A DNA stretch of 64,000 nt from Candidatus Multivorans sp. (GCA_965247095.1 OZ251997.1:480001-544000), one strand, 5' to 3'. Counted from the stretch's first letter, positions 40,615 through 61,827 are shown. Numbers and translations: made by a program. Notes: a model not told the origin generated them from the sequence alone.

Positions 40615-40741
40615 GGGCGGCGGGGGGCCGAAGACGATTGAGTACCATCGCCTCAACTGGACACTTTTTCTGTCTGGTCGTATAGTCTGACCGTTTCAGG
40701 CCCTCGACTTGGGCCTGCCGAAGAACCGCCAGGAGGTGACG

Positions 40742-41330: not shown

Positions 41331-41397
41331 TCCGCCCAGCAGATCAACCAAGCCTTTGCCCCTGCGCTCACAGCATGAGCGGGCGCGAGGAGGCCGC

Positions 41398-44658: not shown

Positions 44659-47600
44659 CAGCGGGACCCTCCGCCTACAGGATCCTGGATGTAGAGGTTC
44701 ACCTGAGGTTCGACGTCGCGCAGCGACCGGTTCACGCGGAACTTCCGGTGATGCGCGGACTCGAACTCCGTGTCCAGCATCTCCCGCAGGAGGGGTTTTC
44801 CACCCTGCCGCTCGTACTGCTGGTATTTCACTTCGGTCCCGACTTCGCGATAGCTGTCGACCACCCGTTGCCAGGAGTCGAGCAGGTCGCCGACCCGGTT
44901 CTGTACGCTCCGAAGCCTCTCCGCCAGGTCCTCTTCGTCCGCGAGCGGTTGGCTTCGGAGCCGGTCGGAGAAGGTCTCGATCAGGCGGCGTTCGAGCATG
45001 GCGCGGACCTCGGAGAGCCGCTCGACGCCTCGCGTTGGCGTCAGCGCCGGATCGGCATGGCGGGCGAGGGCCACGAAGGCGCCGGCCATCCCGCGGTCGA
45101 GAGCCCGGGCGGCGAACGGCGTGACGCTCCCCGCCTCGACCCAGCGGTAGAACGTCTCGTGGTAGTGGCGGAAGCGCTCGTAGTGGGAGCGGTCCCGCGG
45201 CTTGTGGACATTGAGCAGCGTGATCACGAGGCCGGGTCGCGCGTCGTCGCGGCCCACGCGGCTGGTGGCCTGGATGTACTCGGCGTTCGTCTTCGGTTGT
45301 CCCATCACGACCATCAGGCCGAGACGCTGGATGTCTAGGCCGACCGAGATCATGTTCGTCGCCAGGGCGTAGTGGACCCGGTCGCCTTCGTGGAACGCCA
45401 AGCCGAGTCGCCGCCGGGCCCGGGCGACGGCGGCGGTCGAGACCCGCGAGGTCAGCTCCAGGGGGTCGAACGAGGCTTTGCGGTCCCGGAAGTACCTCCG
45501 CTCCTGTCCGAGCCTCAATCTGGCCCCGTAGCCTCGAAGCGTGTTCTGGACCTCCTCCTCGACGATCCGGCGCGCGCCGCCGAGTTCGCGCAGGCTGTTG
45601 AAGTAGGCCAGGACGGTCATGTACGGATCGGCCGGATTGGTCTTGTTCGCCCTGCCTCCAGCGTCGACGTAGGCCTTCTCGGCCGCGGCCATGAGCGGCA
45701 GCAGGAGTCTTCGCATCGTGACCTTCGCGTTTCTGCCCGGCGAGGCGATTCCGACGTAAAGCCGAGCGGGTCTCTCGGTGGGCGGCTTGACCTGGGCGAA
45801 GAAGGAATCACGACGGCTCGGGCCCGGCGGCGGAAAGACCTGGGTCATCGAGCGGCCGAAGAGGGCGCGGATCTGGTCCTGCGCCTGCCTCGCGGTCGCG
45901 GTGGAGGCGACGATTTTGGGCCTTGCAGCGCGACCGCTCGAGCGGTGAAGCGAGAGCGCTTCGATCGCCGTTTCGTAGAGCCCGGTCATCGAGCCGAGGG
46001 GGCCGGCGATCAGGTGCAACTCGTCCTGGACGATCAGGTCCGGCGGCGGCAGCGGCGAGGGCATTGGCCGGCCCCGACCCGGTTCGGCGGCGCCGTAGAA
46101 ACCGTGTTCGTCGAACCGGTCGGCGTTGCCGAGGAGCGCGCCCGACCGCGCTTCCCACGGCAACGCCGCAAACTTGTCGACTGTGGCGATCAGGAAGCAG
46201 GGCAGGCGGCGGTACAACGGCTCGTCGACGGCGACGATGGGCAGGGCGCGGTCGCCGGCGAAGTCGCACTCCCAGTTGGCGCACACCACGCGCAGGTTGC
46301 GGGGTTCGTCCGCGTTTGGTTCGAGCGAGAACGAATCGGGCTCGAACTTCGTGCCGCACCAGGGGCAGTCTTCAAGGGGGATGGGGGACGGTTCGTACTT
46401 CGGCTTCTTCTTGTAGCGGTTCGTCTTCGCGCGAGCCGAGGCGCTGTTGGCGTCGCCCTTGCGGCCGAGCACGTTGGGCGTCGCCGCCTTCCCGACCCAG
46501 AGACCGATCTCGAACGGCCACTCGCCGTAGCGTTCGGGCGCCCGGTCCCGCTCCAGCTCGAGCGCGCAGATCAGCCCCGCTGCCCGGGCCAACTGGTCCA
46601 GGGTCAGCAGGCGCAGCGTGTAGCGCATGATGACCGAGACCCCCGCGCCCGCTCGGCCGCCCGCTTCCGGGTGGCGCAGCCGCCGCAGGACGATGGCGAA
46701 GGCCGCCAGACCCAGGTAGGCCTCCGTCTTGCCGCCGCCAGTGGGAAAGAAGAGGAGATCCACGACCTCCCGGTGGCGGTCGTCTGGATCCGCCAGTGGG
46801 GCGAGGTTCAGCAGGATGAAGGCGAGCTGGAAGGCGCGCCACCTGGGGCCTTCGTCCTCGAAGCCGCTGGGATTTCGGCGCCGGAGGGCCCCTGCTATGG
46901 CCCGGTTGGCGACCCGGAACGCGTCCAGGGCCTGTTCGTCTCTACAGAGAGCCGCGATGCCCCGTTCCATCCGGGAGGCGGCGAACTCGGCGCGGCGCAG
47001 AAGCTCCTCGGCTGTCTCCCGGTGGTCCATGTCGAAGGCCGCAGGTTCGGCGCGACGCTCTCCGATCCACTCGCGGTAGGCGGCGAGGAGAGGTTGGAGT
47101 GCCCGCTCGGCCTCGCCGCCGGTGGCCAGCTCGCCGAGCCGGTCCATGGACAGGTCGACGCCTTCCGGTTCGAACGTCTCCGTCTTCTCGACTTCCGCCT
47201 GAGGGATCCAGGCGGTGCGGACCAGGCGGCAACCGCCGTCGTCGTCCGCGTTCCACTGAGCCGAGACGTTGTGGCCGGTGGCGTACCGGGGCGCGCCGGC
47301 GTAGTGCAGGGCGGCGACCTGTTCATCCCAATCGTCGCCCAGGGCCGGGCGGGGATCGGGACGTGGCAGGAACGGGCGGTCGCTCCACACTTCGATCTCG
47401 GCCTGGAACGCGTAGGTGGTCTCGGCTTCGTCGAGCGAGGCCGCCGGCTGCCGGTTGTTGACCAGGAAGACGGCGACCGAGCGGGCGCCCGGCGGGATCG
47501 TCGAGATCCCCGTGACGAGCCTCCGCTCCACGTGGAGCTGCAAGCCGCCCGAGGCGGGGACATCGTGAAGCGTCGCTCCTTCGCCCGCCACGAGTTCGAC

Positions 47601-48059
47601 CGCGACGACCTCCTCTCGCGGCGTCCGCTGCCAGCAGCGACGGCCCTTGCCCGAATCGTCGACTGCGTCAGTGACCTCGTAGTCTCCCCAGCGCACGGTG
47701 ATCCGAAGCGTCGTGTCCGCAGCCAGGAAGCTCAGCCCGATCGAAGACGGAAAGAACGCCTTCTTCGCTGCCTTTCGGTCCTCGGTGGATTCCTCGGCGA
47801 GGCCGGCTCGCTCTGGGACCTCGTCGAGGTCGTCGTCGTCCTCGTCGGCGCCCGCGTCTAGCTCGGGCGGCGTGTCGGACGGAATCAGGAAGCCGGTGAG
47901 GTACCAGTTCGATGGCGATTCGTAGATCGGCAAGCGCTCGCGGGCGAGTTCGTGGCCGGCGCCGGGGCCGACGAGGTCGACTTTGAGGGCGTCGACGAGG
48001 TCCTGGCGCACGTCCAGAGAGCTTGTCGCCGCCGGAACGGCGGCGCCGGCTTCGGTCAT
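44658..48059 (-). CDS. drmA: DISARM helicase DrmA
   Basis: WRAFQLAF, FFPTGGGKTEAYLG, RYTLRLLT, QDELHLI, ASTAT, ATNMISVGLDI, EYIQATSRVGR, PRDRSHYE. Confidence 0.94.
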   Translation of the reverse strand: MTEAGAAVPAATSSLDVRQDLVDALKVDLVGPGAGHELARERLPIYESPSNWYLTGFLIPSDTPPELDAGADEDDDDLDEVPERAGLAEESTEDRKAAKKAFFPSSIGLSFLAADTTLRITVRWGDYEVTDAVDDSGKGRRCWQRTPREEVVAVELVAGEGATLHDVPASGGLQLHVERRLVTGISTIPPGARSVAVFLVNNRQPAASLDEAETTYAFQAEIEVWSDRPFLPRPDPRPALGDDWDEQVAALHYAGAPRYATGHNVSAQWNADDDGGCRLVRTAWIPQAEVEKTETFEPEGVDLSMDRLGELATGGEAERALQPLLAAYREWIGERRAEPAAFDMDHRETAEELLRRAEFAASRMERGIAALCRDEQALDAFRVANRAIAGALRRRNPSGFEDEGPRWRAFQLAFILLNLAPLADPDDRHREVVDLLFFPTGGGKTEAYLGLAAFAIVLRRLRHPEAGGRAGAGVSVIMRYTLRLLTLDQLARAAGLICALELERDRAPERYGEWPFEIGLWVGKAATPNVLGRKGDANSASARAKTNRYKKKPKYEPSPIPLEDCPWCGTKFEPDSFSLEPNADEPRNLRVVCANWECDFAGDRALPIVAVDEPLYRRLPCFLIATVDKFAALPWEARSGALLGNADRFDEHGFYGAAEPGRGRPMPSPLPPPDLIVQDELHLIAGPLGSMTGLYETAIEALSLHRSSGRAARPKIVASTATARQAQDQIRALFGRSMTQVFPPPGPSRRDSFFAQVKPPTERPARLYVGIASPGRNAKVTMRRLLLPLMAAAEKAYVDAGGRANKTNPADPYMTVLAYFNSLRELGGARRIVEEEVQNTLRGYGARLRLGQERRYFRDRKASFDPLELTSRVSTAAVARARRRLGLAFHEGDRVHYALATNMISVGLDIQRLGLMVVMGQPKTNAEYIQATSRVGRDDARPGLVITLLNVHKPRDRSHYERFRHYHETFYRWVEAGSVTPFAARALDRGMAGAFVALARHADPALTPTRGVERLSEVRAMLERRLIETFSDRLRSQPLADEEDLAERLRSVQNRVGDLLDSWQRVVDSYREVGTEVKYQQYERQGGKPLLREMLDTEFESAHHRKFRVNRSLRDVEPQVNLYIQDPVGGGSR

Positions 48060-48062: not shown

Positions 48063-48653
48063 CTATGTCCCTCGTGATTCCCGAAGCAGCGAGGTCACGT
48101 CGCGCCACAGTTTGTCGAAGGATGGTGCGGTTCGTGCCGCGTCCAGGTCGAAGGCGGCCGTGAACTTGGGCTGATGACGTGTGGGGTGGTAGGTCGCGCC
48201 GCGCAGCACGTTCTGGCTAAGCCATCCCTTGGCGTCCTTGATCGATTCCGGATTCGGGGGCGGCTTCGCTTCGACGCCATGCTTCTCCGCGATCGAGGAG
48301 GTGGCGGCAAGAAACCAGGCCTCGTACTCGGTCTTGGCCAGTACGGCGCGGATGGGGCGATCCGCTCGCGCGAGTCTGGCGCGCCGAAGCAACTCGATGC
48401 CGAGCTCCGCCGGACAGTCGTTGTCCGCATCCAGCAGGATCAGGATGGCGCCGTTGGGACCGGCCTGTCTGGCAGCGAACTCAACGTAGCGTTCCAGCTC
48501 TCCAGGCTTCACTATGCGTTGACGCTTCACTCGAATCGGCCGGTGAATCCGCATCAAAGAGTGGGGCGAGACGTTTTCCGCGACCCGCCGGAGCAGGATG
48601 GGCATGGCCTTGACTTCGCCGTGGCCCTCGACAATGGAAGCGATCTGGAGCAC
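48063..48653 (-). CDS. DUF4276-like TOPRIM-fold protein
   Basis: IVEGHGE (TOPRIM Glu), LLDAD (DxD), EYEAWFLA, APSFDKL; stop is 3 nt from the drmA ATG. Confidence 0.82.
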   Translation of the reverse strand: MLQIASIVEGHGEVKAMPILLRRVAENVSPHSLMRIHRPIRVKRQRIVKPGELERYVEFAARQAGPNGAILILLDADNDCPAELGIELLRRARLARADRPIRAVLAKTEYEAWFLAATSSIAEKHGVEAKPPPNPESIKDAKGWLSQNVLRGATYHPTRHQPKFTAAFDLDAARTAPSFDKLWRDVTSLLRESRGT

Positions 48654-48656
48654 GGC

Positions 48657-49868
48657 TCAGGGCTCGGTGCCGAACAGCCTGATCTGCCCGGGCTTCGGGC
48701 TCGACATGGTCGGATCTGGATCGATCTGGTCCATTCTCAGTAGCTCGCCGGCTGTGAACAGCTTGTCCTTAAGCACTGAGCGCCCGGCCTCGTCCAAGGG
48801 GCCGATACGGGTCTCCCCGTGTGCGGCGCGAACCGCGATGATCGAATCGGCCGGGATCTCGTCGTCGTCGAGAAGGTCGGGGCTGTGGCTGGTCACGAGA
48901 ATCTGAATGTGCTCGGCGGCATCGCGAAGACTGTCGATGAGAACCCCGGCAGCCGCGGGATGGAGCGCCAATTCCGGTTCCTCGATCCCCACAAGCCCCG
49001 GCATGGCGCGTCCGTTGCCGGCGCCCTGGAAGACCGCCACCAGGATGCCCAAGGCCCGGAGCGTGCCGTCCGACATGTTGCTTGCCTCGAACTTCCAGGG
49101 GTGCTTCGCGCCACGGACTTCCTGGCGGAACTCGAGGGTCTCTCTGGAACCTGCCATCTTGCGCCCAACGCCGGTGATTCCCGGTACGACGGTCCCCAGG
49201 TAGTCCTGGATTCGCCGCTTGGACTCGGGTGACCGTGCCGTGAGATTGGCCAGCACGCTCGCGATATTGCTGCCGTCCCGATTCAGGAGTTCGCCGGGGT
49301 CTGGCGGCTGAGGTTGCCGGATCTCCTGCGGGTTCAGACTGTAGAAGCCGATGGTGGACAGCGCCTCGTAGACGCGGCGGAAGGACTCGTGGCCAGACAC
49401 GTTGACCAGGTACAGCCGGTCCGACGCAGCGAGGGGGCCGATTAGCAGGGTGCTCTTCCTGACCTGACCCTTCTCCACGTTGTAGTAGTCGGAATCCCCG
49501 CCGTTGCGAGGCACCACCAGGCACTCTTCGCGCTGGACTTCGTATCCTCCCGGCCTTCTTGCAGCCACCGTGAATGCGTAGTGCCCGTGGGATTCCTCCA
49601 GATCGAGCTCTACGCGAATCCCGAAGTGCGTCGGATGGCCGCCAGACCTCCGTCGCACGTCGTTGATTCCACCGCGGTCGCGCAATGCGTGGTCGATCGA
49701 GTACCGAAGCGAGTCCCGTAGAAAGCAGAGAGCATCGAGGAAATTGCTCTTCCCCGAGCCGTTCGGCCCGAGAAGGAAGCACAGGTTCGCCGGCGACACG
49801 TCGCACGCGGCGATGCTCTTGTAGTTGCGCAGCGCAACCCGGGTCAGCAGGCGGCGGTCGGCGGTCAC
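48657..49868 (-). CDS. ABC-family (AAA_21-like) ATPase
   Basis: LRNYKSI, GPNGSGKSN, signature MSDGT, Walker B IEEPELALHP, H-loop TSHSP. Confidence 0.88.
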   Translation of the reverse strand: MTADRRLLTRVALRNYKSIAACDVSPANLCFLLGPNGSGKSNFLDALCFLRDSLRYSIDHALRDRGGINDVRRRSGGHPTHFGIRVELDLEESHGHYAFTVAARRPGGYEVQREECLVVPRNGGDSDYYNVEKGQVRKSTLLIGPLAASDRLYLVNVSGHESFRRVYEALSTIGFYSLNPQEIRQPQPPDPGELLNRDGSNIASVLANLTARSPESKRRIQDYLGTVVPGITGVGRKMAGSRETLEFRQEVRGAKHPWKFEASNMSDGTLRALGILVAVFQGAGNGRAMPGLVGIEEPELALHPAAAGVLIDSLRDAAEHIQILVTSHSPDLLDDDEIPADSIIAVRAAHGETRIGPLDEAGRSVLKDKLFTAGELLRMDQIDPDPTMSSPKPGQIRLFGTEP

Positions 49869-50119
49869 GCTGTCTCGCCCGCGTTGCGCCGTGGGCTCCG
49901 CCGCCGTGGCGCTCCGGCGCTTGAGCCTTGATTGGCGGCGGTCCATTGGACTGGGCGCTCCGGTCGTCGCTCGGAACTGCTGAGGACGCGCCCGCTCATG
50001 CGGGGAGTCTAGTCGTAGCGAGTGTCGGGTCGTAGGGTCGTCGGCTTGATTTCCGCTCTGTTTGCGCTTACTCTCGGGCTCCGGCCCGGGTGACGACCTA
50101 CGCAGCCTGACGAAGACCA

Positions 50120-50845
50120 ATGTCCGACAACAGCACGATCGAGTGGACCGATGCCACCTGGAACCCGGTCCGCGGCTGCACCAAGGTCAGTTCGGGTTGT
50201 GCCCACTGCTACGCGGAGAGGTTCTCGGAACGCTTCCGCGGCGTTCGGAACCACCCCTTCGAGCAGGGGTTCGACCTTCGGCGGGTCCCGGAGAAGCTCG
50301 ACCAACCCCGCCGTTGGCGCCGGCCACGGCGCGTGTTCGTCAACTCCATGAGCGACCTCTTCCACCCGCAGGTCCCCGAGTCGTACATCGCCGACGTGGG
50401 ACACGTGATGGGCGAGGTCCGTAGGCACACCTACCAGGTCCTCACCAAACGGCACGAGCGAATGGAGGATCTCCTCTCCGGCCCCCTCGCCTGGATGGGC
50501 GAACTTCCCAACGTGTGGTTCGGCGTGAGCGTCGAGAATCGCCGCCAGGGCCTGCCGCGGCTCGAAGCCCTGCGGCGAACTCCCGCCGCGGTCCGCTTCG
50601 CCTCCGTCGAGCCGCTGCTCGAGGACCTGGGCGACTTCGACCTGACCGGCATCGACTGGGTCATCGTGGGTGGCGAGAGCGGGCCAGGAGCGCGACCGAT
50701 GGAGGAAGCGTGGGTGGTCAACGTCCTTCGCCAATGCCGGCGAGACGGCGTGCCCTTCTTCTTCAAGCAGTGGGGCGGCGTGCACAAGCACCGGAACGGG
50801 CGGTTGCTCGGGGGGAGGACGTACGACGAGTCTCCGGTGAACTGA
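50120..50845 (+). CDS. DUF5131 / phage Gp37-Gp68 family protein
   Basis: STIEWTDATWNPVRGCTKVSSGCAHCYA, FVNSMSDLFH, LTKR, SVEPLL, WVIVGGESG, FFFKQWGG. Confidence 0.9.
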   Translation: MSDNSTIEWTDATWNPVRGCTKVSSGCAHCYAERFSERFRGVRNHPFEQGFDLRRVPEKLDQPRRWRRPRRVFVNSMSDLFHPQVPESYIADVGHVMGEVRRHTYQVLTKRHERMEDLLSGPLAWMGELPNVWFGVSVENRRQGLPRLEALRRTPAAVRFASVEPLLEDLGDFDLTGIDWVIVGGESGPGARPMEEAWVVNVLRQCRRDGVPFFFKQWGGVHKHRNGRLLGGRTYDESPVN

Positions 50846-51090
50846 GGAACGGTCGGGGGCGGTGATGGTGGGGTTTCGGGTCTTGAGAGGAAGCCGCCAA
50901 CGCGGTCTACTTGGGCCACCTCTTGAGCGCCATGTTCAGAGCGAGTCGTTCGCGCCGGCTCGCCTCGTCGGGCTCCTCAAACCCGAGGGACCGGAGCCGC
51001 TCCTCGCGGTCGCGGGTCCGTTGTGTGTCAGCGTCGCCCAAGGACCTGTCGGATACCGGAGGGGTTCGCTATGACGGCAGCGTCCAGCCT

Positions 51091-53036
51091 AGCCCGAAGT
51101 TCTGGTGCCCAAGTCGTGAAACTCCTGCAATGACGGTGTTTTTTTGGAAATGGGTGTGTTGTGTACTGGGTACGGTTGGTCAAGGTCGGAGGTTGAGGAG
51201 GCTGAATGCCTCGGCCTGGAGGGGTGTTGGTCTGGCCAGGACATCCGCGGTGGCGTTCTCCTGGCCCTGCATTCGGACGCGATTTCGGGTCAGGGTGGCG
51301 AGGTCGGCGATCAGGGTCTGGAAGCTGTGGACGGGTAGTCCTTGCGGTGTGCGCTTGCCGCTCGCCTTGGGGCGGGCTGCGGGGGACCGGCGAGCCGGCT
51401 GTACGGGCGAGGAGCGTTCGTCCCTTGGGTCGTCGTCGTCGAAGAGCAAGGGAGCGAGAAGGCGTCGCATGTGCCACTCGACGTAGTAGGCGAGCATGCA
51501 CAGAAAGACGTGGGCTCGCACTCTGTCGGCCAGGCGATGGTGGACGGGCCGGACCTTGAGGTCGACGCTCTTGTAGCTGCGGAAGGCGCGCTCGACGCGG
51601 CTGAGGCTCTTGTAGGCCCGGACCGCCTCCGGCGCCGGGAGGTCGGCCTCGGCCACGTTGGTGCGGATGACGTAGAAGCCGTCGAGGGCGGCCTCTTCGG
51701 CGATCCGCGTCTGATTGCGGCAGTAGCGGAAGCCGTCTTCGTCGATCTCGGTGTCGAAGTGCTTGCCGACCTTGTGGGCGCGCAGGGCGCGGTCGGCGCG
51801 GGCGGCGATCTTGTCCTTGCCCCGCAGGGGGCGCTGTGGGCGCCTTGTCGCTTCGGCGACGGCCTCCAGCTTGCGCTCGGTGGCGTCGAGAAGCTCCTGG
51901 CGCTTGCGGCGCCGCCTGGTTGCCAGCAGCGGGTTCCGGCACACGATCAGCCGCTCTGCGGGGTACAGCTCGGGGGCGCTCAGTTCGGCCATGTCCCGTT
52001 CGTCGAAGATCGACAGTTGCAGGTGGCCCTGCTGCACCAGGGTGCGGATCGCGGGCGCGCGCAGGGCGGTGATCCACGACAGGCCGCCGGGTTCGAGGTC
52101 TTCGCGGATGCGGGCGCTGGTGAGCAGGCCCCGATCGCCGACCATGACCACGCGGTCGAGCGAGAAGCGCTCGTTGAGCTTCTGCACTTGGGCACTCAGC
52201 GTGCCGGGATCGGCGGTGTTGCCTTCGAAGACCTCGACCGCGACCGGGCATCCGTCCCGGTTGCAGAGCAGCGCGAAGACGATCTGGGGCTTGCCCGGCT
52301 TGCCGTCCTTGGAGTACCCGCGCCGGGCGAGGGCGCATTTCGCGCCCTCGAAGTAGACCGAGGTCACGTCGCACAAGACGAGGCAACCGTCTTTGAGGTG
52401 CTGTTCGGCCAGCCGTCGCTCGATGCGTTGCTGCCGTTTGAGCAGCCAATCCATGGCGGAGTAGAGCTCGTCGGCGCCCGCCTCCTCGACTCCGAGTTCC
52501 TCGCCGAGGGTGTGGGACGAGGTCTCGCTTGAGAGTCCGCGTGCGGTGGCGAGCTTGGAGCGAGGTTCGAGGATGCGGGCGATGATCATGGCGAGCGCGA
52601 GCGCCCGTTCGCGCGAGGGTCGGCGGTCGAGGAGTGTCTCGAGGCCGCGTCGTCGCGCGGCGCCGAGCGTGGCGGCGACATGACCGTGGGGCCTGGAGCG
52701 CAGGATTTCGAAGGCGGAGTCGAGGGAGGGCAGTGCGACGCCGCCCTTGAGGAGAGTGCGCAGGCCCTCGACGAGATGATCGGGCCACTTGGAGAGGTTG
52801 GCGAGTGTCCGTTTGCAGACTCTTCCGTGGTCTCGGTAGGACTCGCGCAGGAGCACGGCGGGTGGCGAGTTGCGGTTGGGTACGCGTTCGATGTACATGG
52901 CTTCTATTGTAGCTTCATCATGTCTCCATATCTACCACACTTGACCATACTACATGGGTACATTATGCGGCCCGAAAACCGTAAAACCCTAGGCGCGGCA
53001 ACGATCCGCGACACTCAGGCCCCAGAACTTCGGCTT
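51091..53036 (-). mobile_element. IS1634-family insertion sequence
   Basis: Terminal IRs (CT)AGCCCGAAGTTCTGG / CCAGAACTTCGGCTT(AG); AGCCT duplicated at 51086-51090 and 53037-53041; ends uncertain by about 2 bp. Confidence 0.88.
51180..52898 (-). CDS. IS1634-family DDE transposase
   Basis: MYIERVPNRNSPPAVLLRES, DVTSVYFEG, GYSKD, FEGNTAD, VGDRG, VERAFR, RVRAHVFLCMLAY. Confidence 0.93.
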   Translation of the reverse strand: MYIERVPNRNSPPAVLLRESYRDHGRVCKRTLANLSKWPDHLVEGLRTLLKGGVALPSLDSAFEILRSRPHGHVAATLGAARRRGLETLLDRRPSRERALALAMIIARILEPRSKLATARGLSSETSSHTLGEELGVEEAGADELYSAMDWLLKRQQRIERRLAEQHLKDGCLVLCDVTSVYFEGAKCALARRGYSKDGKPGKPQIVFALLCNRDGCPVAVEVFEGNTADPGTLSAQVQKLNERFSLDRVVMVGDRGLLTSARIREDLEPGGLSWITALRAPAIRTLVQQGHLQLSIFDERDMAELSAPELYPAERLIVCRNPLLATRRRRKRQELLDATERKLEAVAEATRRPQRPLRGKDKIAARADRALRAHKVGKHFDTEIDEDGFRYCRNQTRIAEEAALDGFYVIRTNVAEADLPAPEAVRAYKSLSRVERAFRSYKSVDLKVRPVHHRLADRVRAHVFLCMLAYYVEWHMRRLLAPLLFDDDDPRDERSSPVQPARRSPAARPKASGKRTPQGLPVHSFQTLIADLATLTRNRVRMQGQENATADVLARPTPLQAEAFSLLNLRP

Positions 53037-53490
53037 AGCCTGACGCTGCCGGGGCGTCCGCGTGCAACGACAGCCGCTCTCGGGCTTGGAGAATGGCCAG
53101 GAGCGGCGTGCGAGGCCGCAGGTGGGCGTAGGACTGGGGAGGGCGAAAGTTGCACTCGGCGTTCTGAAGCGGAAGTGGGCTTCGCAGTCTCCGCACGTCC
53201 ACAAGTGCGATGGCCGAGATGGAGTCCCGGCCGCCGACGTAGGCGTTGAACTCGGGCCGGTCGATACCGACTCTGTCTCCCGATCGCCGCCAGACTTCTT
53301 CCGGGCTGGCACAGCGCACCGCTTGCACGGTGGCCGTGGCGACGATCTGGTGCCAAGGGCTCGTCGCGTAGAACCAGATTCTGGTGCCGGGAGGCAGGCG
53401 AACGTTGCGCCTTCGGATCTCTACGCTCTTCGTTCCCGAGAGCAGCATCTTCACGTACTTGGGTTTGATCGCCATCAGGACGTCGCTCAC
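53035..53490 (-). CDS. ASCH/PUA-like domain protein (3' end clipped by IS)
   Basis: LMAIKPKY..LLSGTKSVEIRR, FYATSP, PPQSYAHL; the current TAA stop is formed at the IS end. Confidence 0.82.
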   Translation of the reverse strand: MSDVLMAIKPKYVKMLLSGTKSVEIRRRNVRLPPGTRIWFYATSPWHQIVATATVQAVRCASPEEVWRRSGDRVGIDRPEFNAYVGGRDSISAIALVDVRRLRSPLPLQNAECNFRPPQSYAHLRPRTPLLAILQARERLSLHADAPAASG

Positions 53491-53591: not shown

Positions 53592-55853
53592 TCAAAGCCC
53601 ACGGATCGCCTTCCAGAACTCGCGTAGTGCCGGGTTCGTTGTCCCGCCCTCGCCCTCGGCGATGATCCTGGGCGGGTAGGCGAGTCTTCGGAGCTTGCCG
53701 TCGGGCCCACTCTTCTGTGTCTTCTTGTCTTCCAGCAGTCCGTGGTCGCGCAGGAGGTTTTCGAGAGCCCACCAGCACGGGTTGGTAGAGATGCCGCGCT
53801 GCTTGAGCATGCCCTCGGAGAGGTAGTACATTCTCTCGGAAACATGAAGCAGCTTATGCAGAAGTTCGATCGTTTCCTCTGCCTGCTCGCTGTACTGGGG
53901 TTGCGTCGGCGGCTCTTCGGCGGGTATCGGCATTCCAATCTTCTCGCAGATGGCGGCCATCCTGGCGGGGTCGTACTCCGTCCGGCCGTCGCGGTGCGCA
54001 AGTCCATAGAGGTCGACTCCGATCTCGAGGCGAAGCCCGCTAAGCCTGGTGGTCGAAACGTCGACCCTTAGTCCGGTGAATGTGGATTTTGTCGAGGCCT
54101 GGAAGGACCAGTCGGCGCCCCGAAAGTCCGTGTCCACGAAGTCGCAGTTCTCGACGTGCACGTTCCGCTGGACGGTATCGCGGAAGTTCGAGCCCGTGAA
54201 TGACGCCTCGAACAAGTGAGGATCAGGTGTCCGCTCGTGCTTGCACAGGAGCGCCGCGTACAGCGTACCGGCGTTCTCTCGATTCGTCTCGCGGGTCGGA
54301 ACCGGTACACGGCGGGCGGAAAGAGCGTCCAGGACCGAGGCAAGGAAGTCGGGCCCCTCTTCTTCGACATGCTCGGCGAACTCGGCTGCGACCGTGGGAC
54401 TCACCTGGGAACGCCCGAGAAGGCCGGCGACGTCTTCCTGACGGGCGAGTCGCTCGGCGAGGAAGCGGGCGACGAAGAAGGCGTAGTAGTACTCGTGGGA
54501 GAAGGCGAGCATGCGCGGACCGTTCGTGTGGGAGGATCCGTTCTGCGTCGCCAGGAAGGCGTAGGACGAGGCGCGGGAGATGAAGGCGCGAAGGTCGGGC
54601 CCGGTCATTCCAACCTCGTCGGCAAAGAGCTCGGCGATGGTGTCCAAAGAAGCCTTGTCGAGTTCTCGCCTTTCCTGCCACCACATCTCTTCGGCCAGCA
54701 TGCGCAGGAATTGCCAGTGGTTCTCCTCGGTGAGGATGGGCTGGTCCTTGGCATTGAGGAACTTGCCCACCTCGCGCCGGACGAAGCTGTCGATGATGCT
54801 GCGAATGGGCCGGTCGCCGTCGGCGAAGCCGGCGGACTCGCGAGCGGTTTCCACGGCGGCAGCCAGGAAGAACGGAGTGGAGAAGAGCTGTGCGCTCCCG
54901 TTCCCGGAGAAGGTGCTCTCGAGCTCCTCCAGAGCCTGGTCGGGTGACGCGGCTCCGAGCGTCTGGTATTGGTCGTCCTTCTTCAGATAGGTGCACATCT
55001 CCCGTTTCGTCCACGGCTGGAGCTCTACGGGAACGATTGCGAAGCTGGCATCGCTCGACGTGAACCGGTCGGCGCTCGCTCGGATCCGGCCGAAGTCGAA
55101 GTAGGTGGAACGTGCGGAAGCGATGGTTGCCCCGCGGCCGTCCAGGCGTGCGAGGAATTGAGTCAGTGCGTCGATCGCCTCGCCTCCTCCTCCCGCACCC
55201 AGGAGTTCGTCGAAGCCGTCGATGATCGGAACGATGAGCCGGTGCTTCGTGAGAGTGGCCAGTGCCCGGTACGTGAAGCGGGCGTTCAGGTCCTGAAGGA
55301 GGAGTGCCACAGCGTCGTCGAGACGCGCGAGATAGCGGGCCTGGGCATCGATGTAGAGGTAGAGGAAATCCGCGTTGTGATTCAGATACGCGTCGGCCTG
55401 ACGGTGTGCCAGGTGTCGAAGAACCACCGTCTTTCCGGCTCCGGCGGCACCGCGCAAGAACACGACGCGAGTTGCGCCGTGGGGGACGTCCGCGAGGAGA
55501 CTCTCTATGACATTCCTGGCCGAACCTTCGCCTTCGTCGGAATCCGCCGTCGTGGCCCTTGGTTCGATGTATTTGCTGTTCTCGACATCACATGCAAAGA
55601 AGATCGACTCTGCCAGAGCGGTCAGGTTCGCCATCTCCTCGGACGCCAGGAAGGCATGGTAGGCCATTCTTGAACCGTTGAGCTGAACCTCCGGGTACAT
55701 GCCGGAGCTTTGGAGGAACGTCGCTTCGTAACTCGTGCTCTGCCGGGTCCAGATTGCGGTTCCCGGTGGGAGCGCTACGCGAGAGTGCGTGTCCGCGAAC
55801 GATGCAAGATCGGCTCGAATCTCGGCCAGCAGTCGTTCACTGAGCGTTGTCAT
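53592..55853 (-). CDS. NACHT/STAND NTPase with C-terminal pentapeptide-like repeats
   Basis: Walker A GAAGAGKT, Walker B IIDGFDE, ASAR, TPFFL, winged-helix FSHEYYYAFF; C-terminal ASFTGSNFRD/CDFVDTDFRGADW. Confidence 0.8.
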   Translation of the reverse strand: MTTLSERLLAEIRADLASFADTHSRVALPPGTAIWTRQSTSYEATFLQSSGMYPEVQLNGSRMAYHAFLASEEMANLTALAESIFFACDVENSKYIEPRATTADSDEGEGSARNVIESLLADVPHGATRVVFLRGAAGAGKTVVLRHLAHRQADAYLNHNADFLYLYIDAQARYLARLDDAVALLLQDLNARFTYRALATLTKHRLIVPIIDGFDELLGAGGGGEAIDALTQFLARLDGRGATIASARSTYFDFGRIRASADRFTSSDASFAIVPVELQPWTKREMCTYLKKDDQYQTLGAASPDQALEELESTFSGNGSAQLFSTPFFLAAAVETARESAGFADGDRPIRSIIDSFVRREVGKFLNAKDQPILTEENHWQFLRMLAEEMWWQERRELDKASLDTIAELFADEVGMTGPDLRAFISRASSYAFLATQNGSSHTNGPRMLAFSHEYYYAFFVARFLAERLARQEDVAGLLGRSQVSPTVAAEFAEHVEEEGPDFLASVLDALSARRVPVPTRETNRENAGTLYAALLCKHERTPDPHLFEASFTGSNFRDTVQRNVHVENCDFVDTDFRGADWSFQASTKSTFTGLRVDVSTTRLSGLRLEIGVDLYGLAHRDGRTEYDPARMAAICEKIGMPIPAEEPPTQPQYSEQAEETIELLHKLLHVSERMYYLSEGMLKQRGISTNPCWWALENLLRDHGLLEDKKTQKSGPDGKLRRLAYPPRIIAEGEGGTTNPALREFWKAIRGL

Positions 55854-56587
55854 GGCGGGCCACCCAAGGCCAGGTACTCAACAGACATTTGAGAAAGAAG
55901 GTCGGCGTAGGAGCTCGGATACGTGCGGTCTATCGTAACGAGAAGCAGTCGGCTGTGGTCGGCAGCTCCCGCCATCAGGCCGGGCAAGATGTCGTCGTCG
56001 TTGGAGACGACGGCTACCCAGTCGGCCGCATGGTGGCGGGCAAAGTGTATCGTGTCGGCGACGATAGCCGTGTCCACGAGTTTCTGACGCTCCGCGACGA
56101 TGGCCTCGCGCGACGTGACCCCGCAGTCCGGGCGCATGGGGCATCGGTTGCGCTGCCAGTGTCTGAGATCGTCGAGAGGGCAATCGTCAGGATGGCGACA
56201 GTTGCTTGGGCGGTCGACCCTGAGAGCGGGAAGACCGGACCAGAGCCTGAGGGTGTGGCTCAGGTCATGGTCCGGCAGGGCCATGAGTGAATCGGCCATG
56301 CGGACGAAGACGCGGGAGGGTGGTCCTCCGGTCGGGTAGTAGCGTCGCGCGATGGCGCCTAACGCCTGCCTCGCCTCGGTGTGGTCGTTGGTTCTCTCGT
56401 CGTGCCAGCCGCCGTAAAGGCGGATGCGTAGGGACTCTGGCGGAGGCTGCAGTCTGCGGATCTCGCGTAGTAGCAGCGAGATGATTCCATCGAGAGCTTC
56501 GCTGTGGTCCCGGAACTTGGGACGACGGCCTCTCGGCAGGGCGGCGACGTTGAAATAGTCGACGAGGGCGTGGGCGGTGCGTGGCAT
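55850..56587 (-). CDS. NYN/LabA-like (PIN-fold) nuclease with Cys-rich insert
   Basis: LVDYFN, RLYGGW, QKLVDTAIVAD, VVSNDDDILP acidic motifs; C..C...CP...C cluster; ATGA overlap with the NACHT gene. Confidence 0.78.
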   Translation of the reverse strand: MPRTAHALVDYFNVAALPRGRRPKFRDHSEALDGIISLLLREIRRLQPPPESLRIRLYGGWHDERTNDHTEARQALGAIARRYYPTGGPPSRVFVRMADSLMALPDHDLSHTLRLWSGLPALRVDRPSNCRHPDDCPLDDLRHWQRNRCPMRPDCGVTSREAIVAERQKLVDTAIVADTIHFARHHAADWVAVVSNDDDILPGLMAGAADHSRLLLVTIDRTYPSSYADLLSQMSVEYLALGGPP

Positions 56588-56848: not shown

Positions 56849-57607
56849 TCAGGAGCCGTACGGAAACTCCGAGTTGGGAAAATGCTGCGCCCACAACGAG
56901 GCCGCTAATCCACGCCAGAATCGTAGGACGGCGTCGGACCAGTCGGCCAGGTCCGTTTCGGTTACATAGAGTTCGCCGCCGCCCAACGGTGCGAAGGCTA
57001 GGTGGGATGCTTGCATAGCCGCTGCTCGCCGCTGCTCGTCGACGGACGCCCCTTCTGCGGTGCTCAGCTCAAACACGAAGAGATCCGGCCTTAGCGCTGC
57101 GAGTCCGAGGGCCGATTTGCCAGAGCCGTGCTTGATGGTGTTCGCAGCGAGTCTGAGTTCCTTGAGCTTCGCTGCACCCGGCAGAGCAGTTGGAACCACT
57201 TTGGAGCCCAGCAGGCTGTAGTTCAAGGCCTTCCAGCTATACTCCGTTCCCGTTCGTGCCTCGCAGGTCTGATAGAAGAGGCTCTTCTGCTGCTGCTCGA
57301 ACAGGTGCTGCAGGCCGACTGCGAGCACGTTCAATACGCTTTGGCGGATAGCGAACATCGTTTCACCGTATTCGTTGCCATAGTCCGTCGCCCGCTCAGC
57401 CAGGTCGCCGAGGTCACCGTCGTGGTCAGGCCCGGCCGGCTGGGCGCAAAGGCGCTCGAACTCTGCGTCTGTGGCAGCCTCCGCTTCCTGCTCAAGGTTC
57501 TCGAAGACAGGGGGTATTTTCCTCAGAGCGGCTGCGCGGTAGGCCTGGACCGGAGGGACGTAGAACATGGGAATGTGGTGAGCCAGCCAGGCCGTGTCCA
57601 TGAACAT
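56849..57607 (-). CDS. Hypothetical all-helical protein, HEPN-like
   Basis: 252 aa; HLFEQQ early Glu and ELRLAANTIKHG (R/N..xxH) motif. Confidence 0.55.
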   Translation of the reverse strand: MFMDTAWLAHHIPMFYVPPVQAYRAAALRKIPPVFENLEQEAEAATDAEFERLCAQPAGPDHDGDLGDLAERATDYGNEYGETMFAIRQSVLNVLAVGLQHLFEQQQKSLFYQTCEARTGTEYSWKALNYSLLGSKVVPTALPGAAKLKELRLAANTIKHGSGKSALGLAALRPDLFVFELSTAEGASVDEQRRAAAMQASHLAFAPLGGGELYVTETDLADWSDAVLRFWRGLAASLWAQHFPNSEFPYGS

Positions 57608-57669: not shown

Positions 57670-60600
57670 TCATGCCTGGTTGAGCTGCCCTTCCGCCTCG
57701 GCTCGCCGGGCGTTGAGCTCCAGGAGCCGGGCTAGGACTTCGTCACGGACTTCGTCGGGCCAGCGGTAGCGGTAGGGCTTCTTCTTGTTGCCCCAGGTGT
57801 CTTCGTCGATCTCGTGGTCGAGGATGAACTTGCAGGCGGTCGGGATGTCGGTCCAGCCGTAGGCGTCGAGGACGGCGCGGTCCATGGCGGCGTGGAGGTC
57901 GCGGAGCTTCTGGATGGCGGGGCTGGTTTGGCCTCGGTCGTGGAAGCGGTTGTAGGTCTTGGTCAGGCCCTCGTCGTTCTCGATCATCAGGGCGGCGCGG
58001 TAGTCGTAGTAGGCCTTGCCGGCGGCTTCGAGGGCGGCGTGGGTCTCCCAAGCTTGGGGGAAGGGGAAGGTTTCGAAGCAGTCGGAGGGCGTGTACCGCA
58101 AGTCGTCTTTCATTGAAGAGCCGAAGAACCGGGCCCAGAGTTCGTGGGGGCGGGCCTGGAGGGCGCAGAGCGCGGCGTTGGTCGGGAGGGGAAAGATGAT
58201 GAGAGTCTCCGCGTAGACCATTCCGTTGGGTAGGTAAGTAGAGGCTGCGTGCTGACCGACTCGGGCGATCGCGAGGACGCGGTCCAGGTCGGCGATGGCG
58301 GCGTACAGAGCGGGTTGGCGGTCGCCGTAGTACCACCATCGGTTGCGGCGCGAGGCTCGCTTCGACTTGGAGCGTTCTGGCTTGACCCTCTCCTCGACGA
58401 TCGCGAGCAAGTCCGGCCAGTCCGCCGCGACCGGACTCGGATAGTCGACCGGCACGACGCCTCTTCGTAGCCATTCGCGGCGCATCTCGCTCGAGGCCCC
58501 GTTCCACCGTTCCGCGCCGTCTTCGCGGCGTAGCGGATAGTCCCGGAAGTTGATGACGTACCGATGATGAGCGTGAGTCGGACTAGCGTTGACCTCAGCG
58601 CCGCCGATGTACGGGAAGATCGCCTCCCGGTTGTGCGGATCGTCCTCGATCAGCCGTTCCATCTCGGCCAGAGGCGTCGCGACCCCTTTCTTGTCCGTGT
58701 CGTCGAACGTGAAGCCCATGCCGAGGACGTAGCTGCCGACGAAGCTCTTGCCGTCGTTCTCTGCGAGCCGCTCCGGGTCCTCGTGGCCGCCACTGTGGAA
58801 CAGGAAGGCGGTGATGGTCGGCTTCGGGACGCCGTCAAGCAGCCTCGCGCTGGTCCAAGGGCCACGGTGGATATGGAGAACACTGACGATGACCGCCGCG
58901 AGTCCGGGCCACTCGACACGCCGCCGCGCCCGGTAGATCGCTCCGCCGTGCTCGCAGATGTAGCGCAGGCCCGTGGCGCGGGTGTCCCCCTGGGCGATCG
59001 TGTTGGTGGCGATCAGGCCGAAGGCGCCGTTCTCACGGAGCAGATTGAAGGCGCGCCGGAAGAAGTGGGCGACCAGATCGGCGTTGCCGTGGCTCTTTTC
59101 GTGAACTTGCTGGAGCCAGTCCTTGTAGCCAGATACGTTGGCGTTGCCGATCGTGTTCTTGCCCGCGAACGGCGGGTTGCCGACGATCCCGTCAAAGCCG
59201 GGATTCTCACGCTCTCCGGGAAGGAACACTTCCGGGAACTCGATCTTCCAGTGGAACGGCGCCAGCGGGGGATTCGCCTTCCGCAGGTCGTCCAGCCAAC
59301 CGGCGTAGGCGTGGGCGCCTGGAGGGGTTGCCTCGTCTCGCGGAGGCGGCTGCAAGGCTTGGGCGAACTGCCGGCGCAACTCCTCCCGCTCCTTCGGTTT
59401 CTTGCCCTCGAAGAACGCGGCCACAGCCAGATCTCCGTGCGTCTTCACCCGCGCCAGATCATGCTCCGCTTCGTCGAGCCGATCCCGCAGTTCCTTATCG
59501 GGCGTCTCCTCGCCGGCGTCCTGGATCTCACGCCGCAGTCGGAGCGCCTTCTGGACCTGATCGCGGATCCACGTCGTTTCGATGCCAGCCTGGAAGCGCT
59601 TCTGGCTGCCCTCCCAGTGGAAGGCCTGAATCTGCTCCAGGGTGAGCCCTACGAGCGAGTCGCCGTGGCGGAAGGCATGGTCGAGGAAGGTCAACGGGTG
59701 GTCCCTTGCCAGGGTGGCGAGCCACAGGGACAGCTTCGCCAGGTCGACCGCGACCGGATTCCGGTCGACGCCGTAGAGGCAGTTGCGGGCAATGAGACGG
59801 CGGGCGTGGACGGTCTCGTCGCTGTCGGGCGGGATGTTCGGCGTGGCGTCGTAGTAGCGCCACGACTCGACCAGGACGTCGCCGAGTTGGCGGCAGGCTT
59901 CGACCAGGAAGGCGCCGGAGCCCATGGCCGGGTCGCAGATGCAGAGGTCGAGGATCTGTTCCGGGCGGGGCACGGGAGGCGTCGGCGACTCGCCGGATGC
60001 GGGGCGGGACGCCCGCGTGCCATCCGTGCGCCCGATGACGGGCGCTCGGAGTGGTTCGCGGGTGGCGCGGATCGCGCCACCCGGGTTCCCAGGGGTGACG
60101 CTTCCCATGTGGGCAGCCTCTCTTCGCAACCGATCCAGGATCGATTCCAGGGTGTCGCGGACGATCGGGCCGGTGAGCGACCTGGGCGTGTAGTGAGAGC
60201 CGGAACGCCGGCGTTCTTCGCTGGGCTGGAGGATCAGGTCGTCGCGCCGCGCCAGATCGGGCGTGGCGTCGCGGTCGATGACCGAGTCGAGGGCGGCGTG
60301 GAGTTCGTCGAGCGTGGCCGCGTCGTGGACCGCCTTCGCGGCTTTCCCGGTCAGGTTGCGGTCGGTCCGTTGCTTGGTCCATCGCACTCGGCTGCCGGCG
60401 GGCTCGGCGAGCAGTTCCTCCAGGTTCACGGTCGCTGGCGCGCCGTGCTTCTTGGCCGCCTTGATCGCCGCGGACCGCCCCCCGGCGCGTTCGAGCTGGA
60501 AGCCCATCATCGTCTCGTAGACGGCGCCGATCTGCTCGACGTCCAGGGCGCGGTAGGAGAGGCGCTCGCCGTCGAGGACGAGGAGCTTCTCCAGCGCACG

Positions 60601-61827
60601 GAAGATGGTGCCGTCGGAGACGCGGGGCGCCTGTACGCGTTCGTGGCTCTGAGCCGCGCCGACGAGGGGGCGGCCCTCCAGGAACTTGTAGCGGTCCGGG
60701 TCGAAGAGGACGCCGTGCCGGGGCGGGAGCCGCAGCCGTGCCGCTTCGGCGCCGTTGTGGACCATCCGAAACAGGGTCAGCAGTCCTGCCCAGGTGCCGT
60801 AGCGCTGGTTCATCGTGTCGGGGTGGAGCGCGGCGTCGGCCCGCAGCCGTTCGTAGAGGCCGGCAAGGGAGTAGTGGCGTTCGAAGGTCCGGTTGTCGGA
60901 CAGCAGGCCGCGCTCTTCCGCGTAGAGCAGGAACACCAGCCGCAGGACCACCGTGAGCAGGCCGCGGTAGACGTCGTTGCGGTCTTCCCGGAGCTGTTGG
61001 TTCAGCAGGTCGCCGCGCGAGGCGTCGTGGGCTGCCTGGAAGCCGCGCAGCAGCTCGTAGAGGGCGTGCAGCACCTGTCTCGCGAGCTTCTCGCTGACCT
61101 CGTTCTGGTACTTGCGGCTGTCGGCGAGCAGGGCCGCCAAGCGCTGTTCCCGCGGCAGGGCCAGCAGCCGGCGCTCGTTCAGCAGCAGTCGAAGCGCGGT
61201 GCAGATCGGCCGGCCCGCCACCAACAGCATGTCGGCAACATTGAAGTCCATCCAGCCCGAGCTCTCGCCGTGCGGCGCCGAGACGAGGCGCAGGGCGCGG
61301 CCGTTGAAGAGCAGGCCGGCGGGGACTCTCTTCGCCCGGAGCAGTCGTTCCAGCCGGCTGTGGGGCGAGGCTTCGAGCCGGCCGGCGCCGGCGGCGACCC
61401 TGTCGAAGTCCTGGCCGGGCTCAAGGGCCTGCACCAGCAGTTGCCAAGCCGGGCCTTCCTCGCTCGGTTCTAGTTCGCGGACCGCGAAGTCGGGGCGCAG
61501 CGTCTCGCCGTAGTCGGGCAGGTGAAGGCTCAGATCCTCCGGCATCGGGGCGGCGCTGCCGCCGGCGTAGCCCCTGGGCGAGAAGTTCCAGCCGAGCACG
61601 GTGCGGGCGAACGGCTCGAAATCGGGCAGGAGGGCTGAGGGCTCGTCGCCCGATCCGGACCGCCGGCATTCAACGGCCGCCTGCAGGCGGCGCTGGCCCT
61701 CCTGGTCGCTGCGTTGCAGCACCGCGCCGGCCTTGTCCAGCGCCGGCGCCGAGACGACGAGACCGGTCGGCTGCACGAAGCCGAGCCACTCCAGGTGGGC
61801 GAGCGTGTTCGCGTTCGGTTGGGCCAT
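57670..61827 (-). CDS. drmMI: DISARM class 1 N6-adenine DNA methyltransferase DrmMI
   Basis: GSHYTP, DPAMGSGAFL (motif I), LYGVD, GNPPF (motif IV), LRYTPSDCFETFPFP; lies between drmD and drmA. Confidence 0.9.
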   Translation of the reverse strand: MAQPNANTLAHLEWLGFVQPTGLVVSAPALDKAGAVLQRSDQEGQRRLQAAVECRRSGSGDEPSALLPDFEPFARTVLGWNFSPRGYAGGSAAPMPEDLSLHLPDYGETLRPDFAVRELEPSEEGPAWQLLVQALEPGQDFDRVAAGAGRLEASPHSRLERLLRAKRVPAGLLFNGRALRLVSAPHGESSGWMDFNVADMLLVAGRPICTALRLLLNERRLLALPREQRLAALLADSRKYQNEVSEKLARQVLHALYELLRGFQAAHDASRGDLLNQQLREDRNDVYRGLLTVVLRLVFLLYAEERGLLSDNRTFERHYSLAGLYERLRADAALHPDTMNQRYGTWAGLLTLFRMVHNGAEAARLRLPPRHGVLFDPDRYKFLEGRPLVGAAQSHERVQAPRVSDGTIFRALEKLLVLDGERLSYRALDVEQIGAVYETMMGFQLERAGGRSAAIKAAKKHGAPATVNLEELLAEPAGSRVRWTKQRTDRNLTGKAAKAVHDAATLDELHAALDSVIDRDATPDLARRDDLILQPSEERRRSGSHYTPRSLTGPIVRDTLESILDRLRREAAHMGSVTPGNPGGAIRATREPLRAPVIGRTDGTRASRPASGESPTPPVPRPEQILDLCICDPAMGSGAFLVEACRQLGDVLVESWRYYDATPNIPPDSDETVHARRLIARNCLYGVDRNPVAVDLAKLSLWLATLARDHPLTFLDHAFRHGDSLVGLTLEQIQAFHWEGSQKRFQAGIETTWIRDQVQKALRLRREIQDAGEETPDKELRDRLDEAEHDLARVKTHGDLAVAAFFEGKKPKEREELRRQFAQALQPPPRDEATPPGAHAYAGWLDDLRKANPPLAPFHWKIEFPEVFLPGERENPGFDGIVGNPPFAGKNTIGNANVSGYKDWLQQVHEKSHGNADLVAHFFRRAFNLLRENGAFGLIATNTIAQGDTRATGLRYICEHGGAIYRARRRVEWPGLAAVIVSVLHIHRGPWTSARLLDGVPKPTITAFLFHSGGHEDPERLAENDGKSFVGSYVLGMGFTFDDTDKKGVATPLAEMERLIEDDPHNREAIFPYIGGAEVNASPTHAHHRYVINFRDYPLRREDGAERWNGASSEMRREWLRRGVVPVDYPSPVAADWPDLLAIVEERVKPERSKSKRASRRNRWWYYGDRQPALYAAIADLDRVLAIARVGQHAASTYLPNGMVYAETLIIFPLPTNAALCALQARPHELWARFFGSSMKDDLRYTPSDCFETFPFPQAWETHAALEAAGKAYYDYRAALMIENDEGLTKTYNRFHDRGQTSPAIQKLRDLHAAMDRAVLDAYGWTDIPTACKFILDHEIDEDTWGNKKKPYRYRWPDEVRDEVLARLLELNARRAEAEGQLNQA

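Follow-up and report, generated by a model that had tools for sequence, protein, structure and literature searches.

Can a bacterial NACHT NTPase in which no effector domain is recognised act through a nuclease encoded by the neighbouring gene? This question is raised by two overlapping genes in a 64,000-nt stretch of DNA from Candidatus Multivorans sp. (GCA_965247095.1 OZ251997.1:480001-544000; the whole stretch is referred to here as the window). The first gene encodes a small NYN-like protein and the second a NACHT/STAND NTPase. Bacterial proteins resembling the animal nucleotide-binding leucine-rich-repeat (NLR) family usually have the effector built into the same chain, according to the text of Kibby et al. 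(10.1101/2022.07.19.500537). A sequence-only reading of the window had proposed instead that the NTPase senses a phage component, with its pentapeptide repeats as possible mimics of DNA, and activates the NYN protein in trans, causing abortive infection. Here, we examined the folds of both proteins, their linkage in related genomes and their neighbourhood. We consider it probable, on balance, that the pair is a self-contained two-gene NLR-like conflict module, most likely anti-phage, with the NACHT protein as sensor and switch and the NYN protein as an effector supplied in trans.

The coordinates of the two genes, the 753-aa length of the NACHT protein and the ATGA at which the NYN stop and the NACHT start overlap, all given in that earlier reading, can be read directly from the sequence (Table 1). 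The overlap is predicted to couple translation of the two genes. For the NYN gene, the ATG at 56587 yields a 245-aa protein, and this start and length are common to its homologues. An alternative, longer version starting from a TTG at 56638 was without support.

Folds and predicted active sites of the two proteins

The small protein carries the motifs DYFN (residues 10–13), QKLVD (168–172) with D178, and SNDDD (195–199). In an alignment of its family, D10, N13, Y58, G60, W61, K169, D172, D197 and D199 are invariant in 44/44 sequences. The only Pfam match of the window protein is NYN (PF01936), at 20.5 bits for a cut-off of 24.2. Pfam NYN is matched by 18 of the 44 aligned members at E ≤ 0.01 (best 2e-6), and a match to a different family is seen in none of the 44. 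PF01936 is found in 25–30% of the members of the nearest ESM Atlas clusters.

An AlphaFold2 model of the NYN protein was built on the 44-sequence alignment, with a predicted local distance difference test score (pLDDT) of 94.9 and a predicted template modelling score (pTM) of 0.90. Foldseek found no clear match to this model in the PDB (best template modelling (TM) score below 0.4), and the family sequence profile had no PDB match below E 0.1. A full structural alignment with VIA-align, which is independent of Foldseek, was made against 48,161 PDB representatives. The top match was the NYN domain of Marf1 (5yaa; Z 12.4, root-mean-square deviation 3.2, 144/150 residues aligned), followed by the LabA-like protein VPA0982, whose function is not known (2qip; Z 10.7, 150/162 aligned). 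Further matches, at Z about 8 or lower, include the PIN-like nucleases ExoIX, T4 RNase H, T5 exonuclease, Xrn1 and Rae1/YacP. Sequence identity to Marf1 NYN and VPA0982 is just 12–15%, and the acidic residues have the same arrangement. On the strength of the model, the assignment of the small protein as a NYN/PIN-like nuclease is sound. By motif position, D10, D172, D197 and D199 form a putative metal site that would be equivalent to the catalytic residues of Marf1, and the substrate may be RNA or possibly DNA.

The NYN family exists in two forms. Long members (∼235–250 aa) contain an insert of ∼50 residues, whereas short members (∼190 aa) have none of it, and about half of the family carries the insert. 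Its four cysteines (C130, C136, C149 and C155) are invariant in 27/27 long-form sequences, and the insert is a probable zinc knuckle that would bind metal. The insert also sets this half of the family apart from Marf1 NYN and VPA0982.

The large protein matches Pfam NACHT (PF05729) at 31.4 bits, above the cut-off of 26.7. Its Walker A (GAAGAGKT, residues 135–142) and Walker B (DGFDE, 212–216) motifs are invariant in the family alignment, in which the invariant columns are G135, A137, G138, G140, K141, D212, G213, F214, D215 and E216. In agreement, the AlphaFold2 model (pLDDT 85, pTM 0.84) has NLRC4 (4kxf, E 1e-13) and NOD2 (5irm, E 3e-12) as its top Foldseek matches, and also matches the NLRP3 NACHT domain (7alv; TM 0.59 on the target). 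Judged by profile and model together, the large protein is a true NACHT NTPase, with predicted NLR-like nucleotide-binding, helical, winged-helix and helical modules.

At the N-terminus, the model places an alpha/beta domain (residues 1–122) that has no Pfam or Atlas family match worth naming, and no enzymatic motif or known fold. D15, F19 and W35 within it are at least 95% conserved in 67 NACHT sequences, including those of a clade that has no NYN partner. At the other end, the single sequence gives a weak signal for pentapeptide repeats, 16.5 bits in the whole protein; with PF00805 run on the region alone, the score is 20.8 bits for a cut-off of 20.2. Positions 531–615 of the NACHT family profile match pentapeptide proteins in the PDB, namely the designed protein beta1 (5e-13), QnrB1 (3e-10) and MfpA (5e-10), and the model has short beta strands at 546–626, a short helix of ∼80 residues. 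At the profile level, the beta-helix in the tail is a pentapeptide repeat. This region is the most divergent part between NACHT clades, with an identity of 0.20–0.21 versus 0.43–0.45 for the nucleotide-binding domain, which fits a candidate sensor role, without proving it. The small C-terminal domain (residues 655–753) has conserved W694, G716 and W747 and gives a faint hint of the helix-turn-helix family HTH_24 (E 0.07).

The sequence-only reading had described a PIN-fold NYN-like protein with acidic motifs and a four-cysteine insert, beside a NACHT-type NTPase with an unrecognised N-terminus of about 120 aa and C-terminal pentapeptide-like repeats. These descriptions all held: the motifs and cysteines are present, with the acidic residues invariant across the family, the folds match Marf1 NYN and VPA0982 on one side and NLRC4, NOD2 and NLRP3 on the other, no family matched the N-terminus, and the repeats match known pentapeptide proteins at the profile level. 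The same reading called the NACHT protein 'effector-less'. That term applies in one sense only, namely that no known domain is recognised in the N-terminus.

Linkage of the two genes across related loci

For the NYN protein, protein searches returned 27 relatives, and for the NACHT protein 113 of similar length. Many of them lie on the same contig, for example under the adjacent locus tags K0R38_6947 and K0R38_6946. We then scanned one genome per species and found 140 stretches with a NACHT relative, of which 80 loci (L001–L080) were kept and their open reading frames (ORFs) searched with a custom NYN-family profile. In 61/80 loci (60/80 without a weak match in L064), the NACHT gene is immediately preceded on the same strand by a NYN-family ORF, and the remaining 19 have no NYN-family ORF beside NACHT. 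Relative to the NACHT start inferred from the profile, the position of the NYN stop ranges from −14 to +46 nt across the related loci. The pairing, which recurs in 61/80 related loci, is far above chance, and homologues of the two genes do occur together, as the earlier reading required.

To compare the histories of the two proteins, we used 53 intact pairs, excluding L001, which is near-identical to the window, and L009, L043, L055, L058, L064, L070 and L080, which are frameshifted, fragmented or truncated. Pairwise distances of the NYN and NACHT proteins correlate with r 0.955, a value reached in 0/999 permutations. All five NACHT domains correlate with the NYN distances (0.79–0.94), with no domain set apart.

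A FastTree phylogeny of 72 NACHT proteins, leaving out 8 short or fragmented rows, separates three clades according to partner. One contains 28 rows with a long NYN together with L005 and L011, which have none; another contains 28 rows with a short NYN together with L031, which has none; and the third consists of 13 NYN-less rows with a support of 100. The partner labels need 5 changes on this tree compared with 32.7 when shuffled, and kinship alone gives much of such clustering. As far as sequence trees can tell, the pattern shows joint inheritance without partner swapping, and not co-adaptation.

The two genes appear to be kept as separate genes. Nearly all of 150 listed NYN representatives from an exhaustive profile search are free-standing proteins of 185–270 aa, and a NACHT fusion is absent among these 150. 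An apparent 1134-aa NYN–NACHT fusion in L009 (4876–8280) was rejected, since it arises from a frameshift close to where the NYN part ends (3′). The sole product of a search for longer proteins, P0042 (901 aa), has a partial NYN part and was assumed to be a merged gene call. With no robust example found in these searches, fusion is, on present sequences, not a feature of the NYN+NACHT family. The NYN family itself is large: clustered at 50% identity, it comprises 1674 clusters when matches with E ≤ 1e-3 are counted and 438 when the limit is E ≤ 1e-30. No third conserved gene accompanies the pair, the commonest neighbour family being present in 10/80 loci.

One locus contains both types of pair. 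In L027, from a Vicinamibacterales genome, a short-type pair (5364–8325, plus strand) and a long-type pair (10878–13870, minus strand) lie a few kilobases apart, and the genes that separate them include one for a mad3/AriA-like ATPase.

The locus, its DISARM surroundings and distribution

The window pair lies within a class 1 DISARM locus in which every Drm gene is on the minus strand. A DrmD fragment and DrmMI flank the pair on one side and DrmA and DrmB on the other, so the position inside a DISARM operon that had been noted from the sequence is correct. From DrmMI to DrmA, the order is a 252-aa gene, the NYN+NACHT pair, an insertion sequence of the IS1634 family, a DUF5131 gene on the plus strand and a HEC-01A/B pair. 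A promoter/terminator scan and an Rfam scan of the locus found nothing.

Table 1. Coordinates of the NYN+NACHT pair, its domains and the surrounding features, numbered from the first nucleotide of the window
Feature	Position	Strand	Basis or remark
DrmB	42826-44658	minus	PADLOC match
DrmA	44658-48059	minus	PADLOC match
HEC-01A/HEC-01B pair	48063-50120	minus	E 6e-158 (HEC-01A), E 3e-72 (HEC-01B)
DUF5131 gene	50120-50845	plus	PDC-M41B (E 2e-100), PDC-M30B (E 6e-99)
IS1634-family element	51095-53032		30-nt terminal inverted repeats at 51085-51114 and 53013-53042
IS1634-family transposase	51180-52898	minus	
NACHT/STAND NTPase gene	53592-55853	minus	ATG start, 753 aa
Small C-terminal helical, winged-helix-like domain, residues 655-753	53595-53891	minus	AlphaFold2 model
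Short pentapeptide-repeat beta-helix, residues ~541-630	53964-54233	minus	Profile match, PF00805, model
Helical and winged-helix modules, residues 301-540	54234-54953	minus	AlphaFold2 model, animal NLR fold match
Nucleotide-binding domain, residues ~125-300	54954-55481	minus	Walker A 55428-55451, Walker B 55206-55220
N-terminal alpha/beta domain, residues 1-122	55488-55853	minus	Limits from AlphaFold2 model
ATGA overlap, NYN stop/NACHT start	55850-55853	minus	Read directly from sequence
NYN-like gene (LabA/Marf1-type PIN-fold)	55850-56587	minus	245 aa; ORF and translation
Four-Cys insert (C130, C136, C149, C155)	56123-56200	minus	Within NYN domain; probable zinc knuckle
252-aa gene	56849-57607	minus	
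DrmMI	57670-61827	minus	PADLOC match
DrmD fragment	62609-64000	minus	

For the 252-aa gene, which separates DrmMI from the NYN gene, searches of Pfam, PADLOC, NCBIfam and the PDB gave no match. Only the loci that likewise contain DrmMI (L001, L003 and L004) keep it, at 69–98% identity, and it therefore travels with the DISARM context and not with the NYN+NACHT pair. The IS1634-family element, inserted ∼560 bp downstream of where the NACHT gene stops, is missing from L001, a locus near-identical to the window, and the alignment has an overlap of 8 bp that suggests duplication of the target. A second embedded defence pair, HEC-01A (an ABC-type ATPase) and HEC-01B (a DUF4276 protein), lies in the interval from the NACHT gene to DrmA. 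The DUF5131 protein matches two PADLOC candidates (Table 1); the window has no recognised partner A adjoining it, whereas the DUF5131 homologue of L004 has a PDC-M30A-like gene (9666–10811) as its neighbour. DrmC, a phospholipase D (PLD) gene, was not recognised downstream of DrmB (38199–42766) among the ORFs scanned with PADLOC, and this DISARM locus may be without DrmC or have it elsewhere.

DISARM genes surround the pair, with HEC-01 beside it, in the window, L001, L003 and L004, and homologues of the window DrmMI occur near the pair in just 3/80 related loci. To assess the neighbourhood more widely, the two nearest ORFs to either side were compared with PADLOC at E ≤ 1e-5 for 55 pairs, using crude ORF calls. 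The controls were 13 random 20-kb regions, 6 from the same genome and 7 from related genomes, all of one order. Known defence genes account for 21/205 ORFs beside the pair (in 17/55 loci) versus 11/185 control ORFs. The matched neighbours include type I, IIG, III and IV restriction-modification genes, BREX BrxC, HmaC, PD-T4-6 and several PDC candidates, and 38/55 loci have no PADLOC match among the four nearest genes.

NYN+NACHT pairs were found under 11 phylum labels, with phyla mixed within clades. The Saccharimonadota label (L072) is suspect, as the NACHT protein is identical to that of L073, which is labelled Myxococcales; this identity probably reflects a binning or labelling conflict in public metagenome-assembled genomes rather than recent transfer. 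Close to the window, the NACHT gene is present in its own genome and in 7/24 other genomes of the same genus, and in 0/16 genomes from other families of the order. Its distribution is patchy. The pair is also present in cultured strains, namely Methylorubrum rhodinum DSM 2163 (L044) and Embleya sp. (L062). In L044, NYN spans 5349–5975 and NACHT spans 5983–8253.

Candidate functions and relation to known systems

From the folds, the intact catalytic and NTPase motifs, the linkage, the patchy distribution with phyla mixed within clades and the position inside DISARM, we infer a scheme for sensing, NYN–NACHT contact, nuclease action and defence. An infection cue would be recognised by the variable pentapeptide beta-helix together with the small C-terminal domain of NACHT. 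The NACHT module would then oligomerise in a nucleotide-dependent manner, and the oligomer would recruit or unleash the separate, metal-dependent NYN nuclease, with translational coupling keeping the two proteins in a fixed ratio. The activated nuclease would degrade RNA (possibly DNA), halting either phage replication or the infected cell, i.e. abortive infection.

Several observations weigh against this scheme. The 13-member monophyletic clade consists of NACHT proteins of the same length without a NYN partner, and L005, L011 and L031, inside the NYN clades, are also without one; the NACHT protein may work without NYN or use other partners. D15, F19 and W35 are retained in the NYN-less clade and are therefore not NYN-specific docking residues. 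The window NYN protein scores under the Pfam NYN cut-off. The excess of defence genes beside the pair is ∼1.7-fold (odds ratio 1.8, one-sided Fisher p 0.086), which is suggestive, no more. Finally, searches of plasmids gave no match at E ≤ 1e-20, and viral contigs gave a single partial remote match.

Within the NYN-less clade, the NACHT genes of L061, L063, L065, L067, L075, L078, L071, L074 and L077 have as neighbours Schlafen/AlbA_2–HATPase_c_4, ThiF–JAB, or GmrSD plus HNH genes. In L078, the Schlafen/AlbA_2–HATPase_c_4 gene overlaps the NACHT start. These neighbours are possible alternative partners of NACHT.

The same clade bears directly on the first alternative, in which the NACHT protein is a complete unit with its N-terminal domain as effector or adaptor, and NYN is an accessory that makes or trims a ligand, amplifies the response or controls expression, rather than the executioner. 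Consistent with this, the 13-member clade and the three scattered NYN-less loci keep a full-length NACHT, the three N-terminal residues are conserved with or without NYN, and bNACHT01-type proteins without a recognised effector are described as protective (10.1101/2022.07.19.500537). However, a mere accessory sits poorly with the retention of NYN in 61/80 loci, tightly coupled and with invariant catalytic residues, and the N-terminal domain has neither an enzymatic motif nor a known fold. In addition, the NYN-less loci often have conflict-type neighbours (Schlafen/AlbA_2–HATPase_c_4, ThiF–JAB, GmrSD) that could take the place of NYN. We regard this alternative as rather unlikely.

A small nuclease translationally coupled to a larger partner could also be a toxin–antitoxin-like addiction module, with NYN as a constitutive toxin, NACHT as a neutraliser released on stress, and defence at most a by-product. 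The patchy distribution with phyla mixed within clades agrees with such a module, as does the presence of a HipA-type kinase gene and other such modules near some loci. Nevertheless, a 750-aa NLR-type NTPase with a repeat sensor would be unusual as an antitoxin, and scans of the N- and C-terminal domains of NACHT did not confidently recognise an autoregulatory DNA-binding domain. NACHT genes also persist without NYN. An addiction module is, in our estimate, quite unlikely.

A role outside defence was considered as well, in which the STAND NTPase governs a regulatory RNase switch for RNA turnover linked to stress or development, comparable to cyanobacterial LabA-type NYN proteins. Apart from Marf1, the closest relative with a solved structure is a LabA-like protein whose function is not known, and most of the neighbourhoods tested (38/55) have no PADLOC match. 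Such a switch is nonetheless hard to reconcile with patchy presence within one genus, phyla mixed within clades, embedding in DISARM beside HEC-01, and two different pairs side by side in L027; we consider it very unlikely. That the pair is an accessory part of DISARM itself, as its place between DrmMI and DrmA in the window, L001, L003 and L004 might suggest, is already disfavoured and highly improbable, given the rarity of DrmMI homologues beside it (3/80), its occurrence in many other contexts and the unrelated cargo (HEC-01, DUF5131 and an insertion sequence) that shares the same embedded space; neither protein has a Drm profile match in PADLOC.

The NYN protein as an effector in trans remains our preferred explanation for the pair. 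A broader and more tentative idea, possible although we would not expect it, is that the ∼750-aa NACHT–pentapeptide family is a modular NLR chassis. Its exchangeable, free-standing effectors would be encoded just upstream (a long NYN with a zinc knuckle, a short NYN or, in the NYN-less clade, Schlafen/AlbA_2–HATPase_c_4 or E1–JAB) and would be recruited by the N-terminal domain as a new type of adaptor. If true, this chassis would be a bacterial counterpart of the adaptor-mediated effector recruitment by animal inflammasomes.

Avs proteins usually carry their effector in cis and have tetratricopeptide-repeat-like sensors. The window pair resembles the Avs/AVAST systems, as far as its genes alone indicate, in combining a STAND NTPase sensor that would oligomerise with a nuclease or other effector that it would activate. 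It differs in that neither protein has an AVAST/Avs match in PADLOC (E ≤ 0.01) and no known effector domain is present in the NACHT N-terminus. Foldseek matches of the NYN model to Avs4 and Avs5 were at noise level and were discarded.

The bNACHT proteins reported by Kibby et al. (10.1101/2022.07.19.500537) are antiphage, and the sensors listed there include pentapeptide repeats. The window NACHT shares with them a NACHT module, a C-terminal sensor of superstructure-forming repeats and a patchy distribution, and its repeats followed by a small C-terminal domain resemble the 'hybrid' type described in that text. In contrast to bNACHT proteins as described there, the nuclease of the window pair is a separate, tightly coupled and conserved gene. 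The RNase effectors listed in that work are Schlafen and HEPN, and not NYN. NYN and PIN are absent from its main text; its supplementary tables, which lie outside this comparison, may list the clade.

Two other reported systems each resemble one half of the pair. HEC-09 is described as a single-gene antiviral NYN protein found by embedding (Payne et al., 10.1101/2024.01.29.577857). Like the window protein, it is a free-standing, Marf1-like NYN protein embedded in another defence system, and the guilt-by-embedding logic behind it applies to the window too. Unlike the window protein, HEC-09 is described with an N-terminal helix-turn-helix-like region and without an NTPase partner, and the window NYN fails the HEC-09 PADLOC models. 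DS-8 is reported as a validated defence protein (DeWeirdt et al., PMC13092281), and the NCBIfam DS8_antiphage model gives a weak 25-bit match to residues 378–473 of the window NACHT, in its winged-helix part, for a cut-off of 790 bits. DS-8 is a single protein of 994 positions in which a metallophosphatase is fused to NACHT, a fusion that the window protein does not have, and so it is just a distant relative according to that description. Free-standing NYN (HEC-09, 10.1101/2024.01.29.577857) and fused-effector NACHT (10.1101/2022.07.19.500537; DS-8, PMC13092281) have thus each been reported as antiviral.

The earlier reading did not recognise the pair as a named system, and our comparisons agree. 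For both proteins, PADLOC-DB v2.0.0 gave no match to a named system, NCBIfam release 20 no score that reaches the cut-off of a named defence family, and Pfam no named defence system. The NYN protein matches 0 PADLOC families at E ≤ 0.01, and the sole PADLOC match of the NACHT protein is to BrxF at the level of the P-loop (E 0.006). In the portions of the literature on bacterial NACHT/STAND and NYN antiviral proteins that were compared, we did not find the NYN+NACHT pair described.

Taken together, the pair seems best described, with somewhat better than even confidence, as a variant of the bacterial NLR-like systems in which the effector is encoded in trans, widespread, unnamed in the libraries searched and with a predicted function. 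In contrast to the usual effector in cis, the predicted executioner nuclease of this large family has a gene of its own, coupled to NACHT in translation. The window is also an example of how genes carried inside DISARM can lead to systems without a name. If the pair is anti-phage, the catalogue would gain a widespread two-gene system, a second NYN nuclease would join the antiviral effectors, after HEC-09, and the pair would provide a tractable model of how a NACHT oligomer activates a free enzyme.

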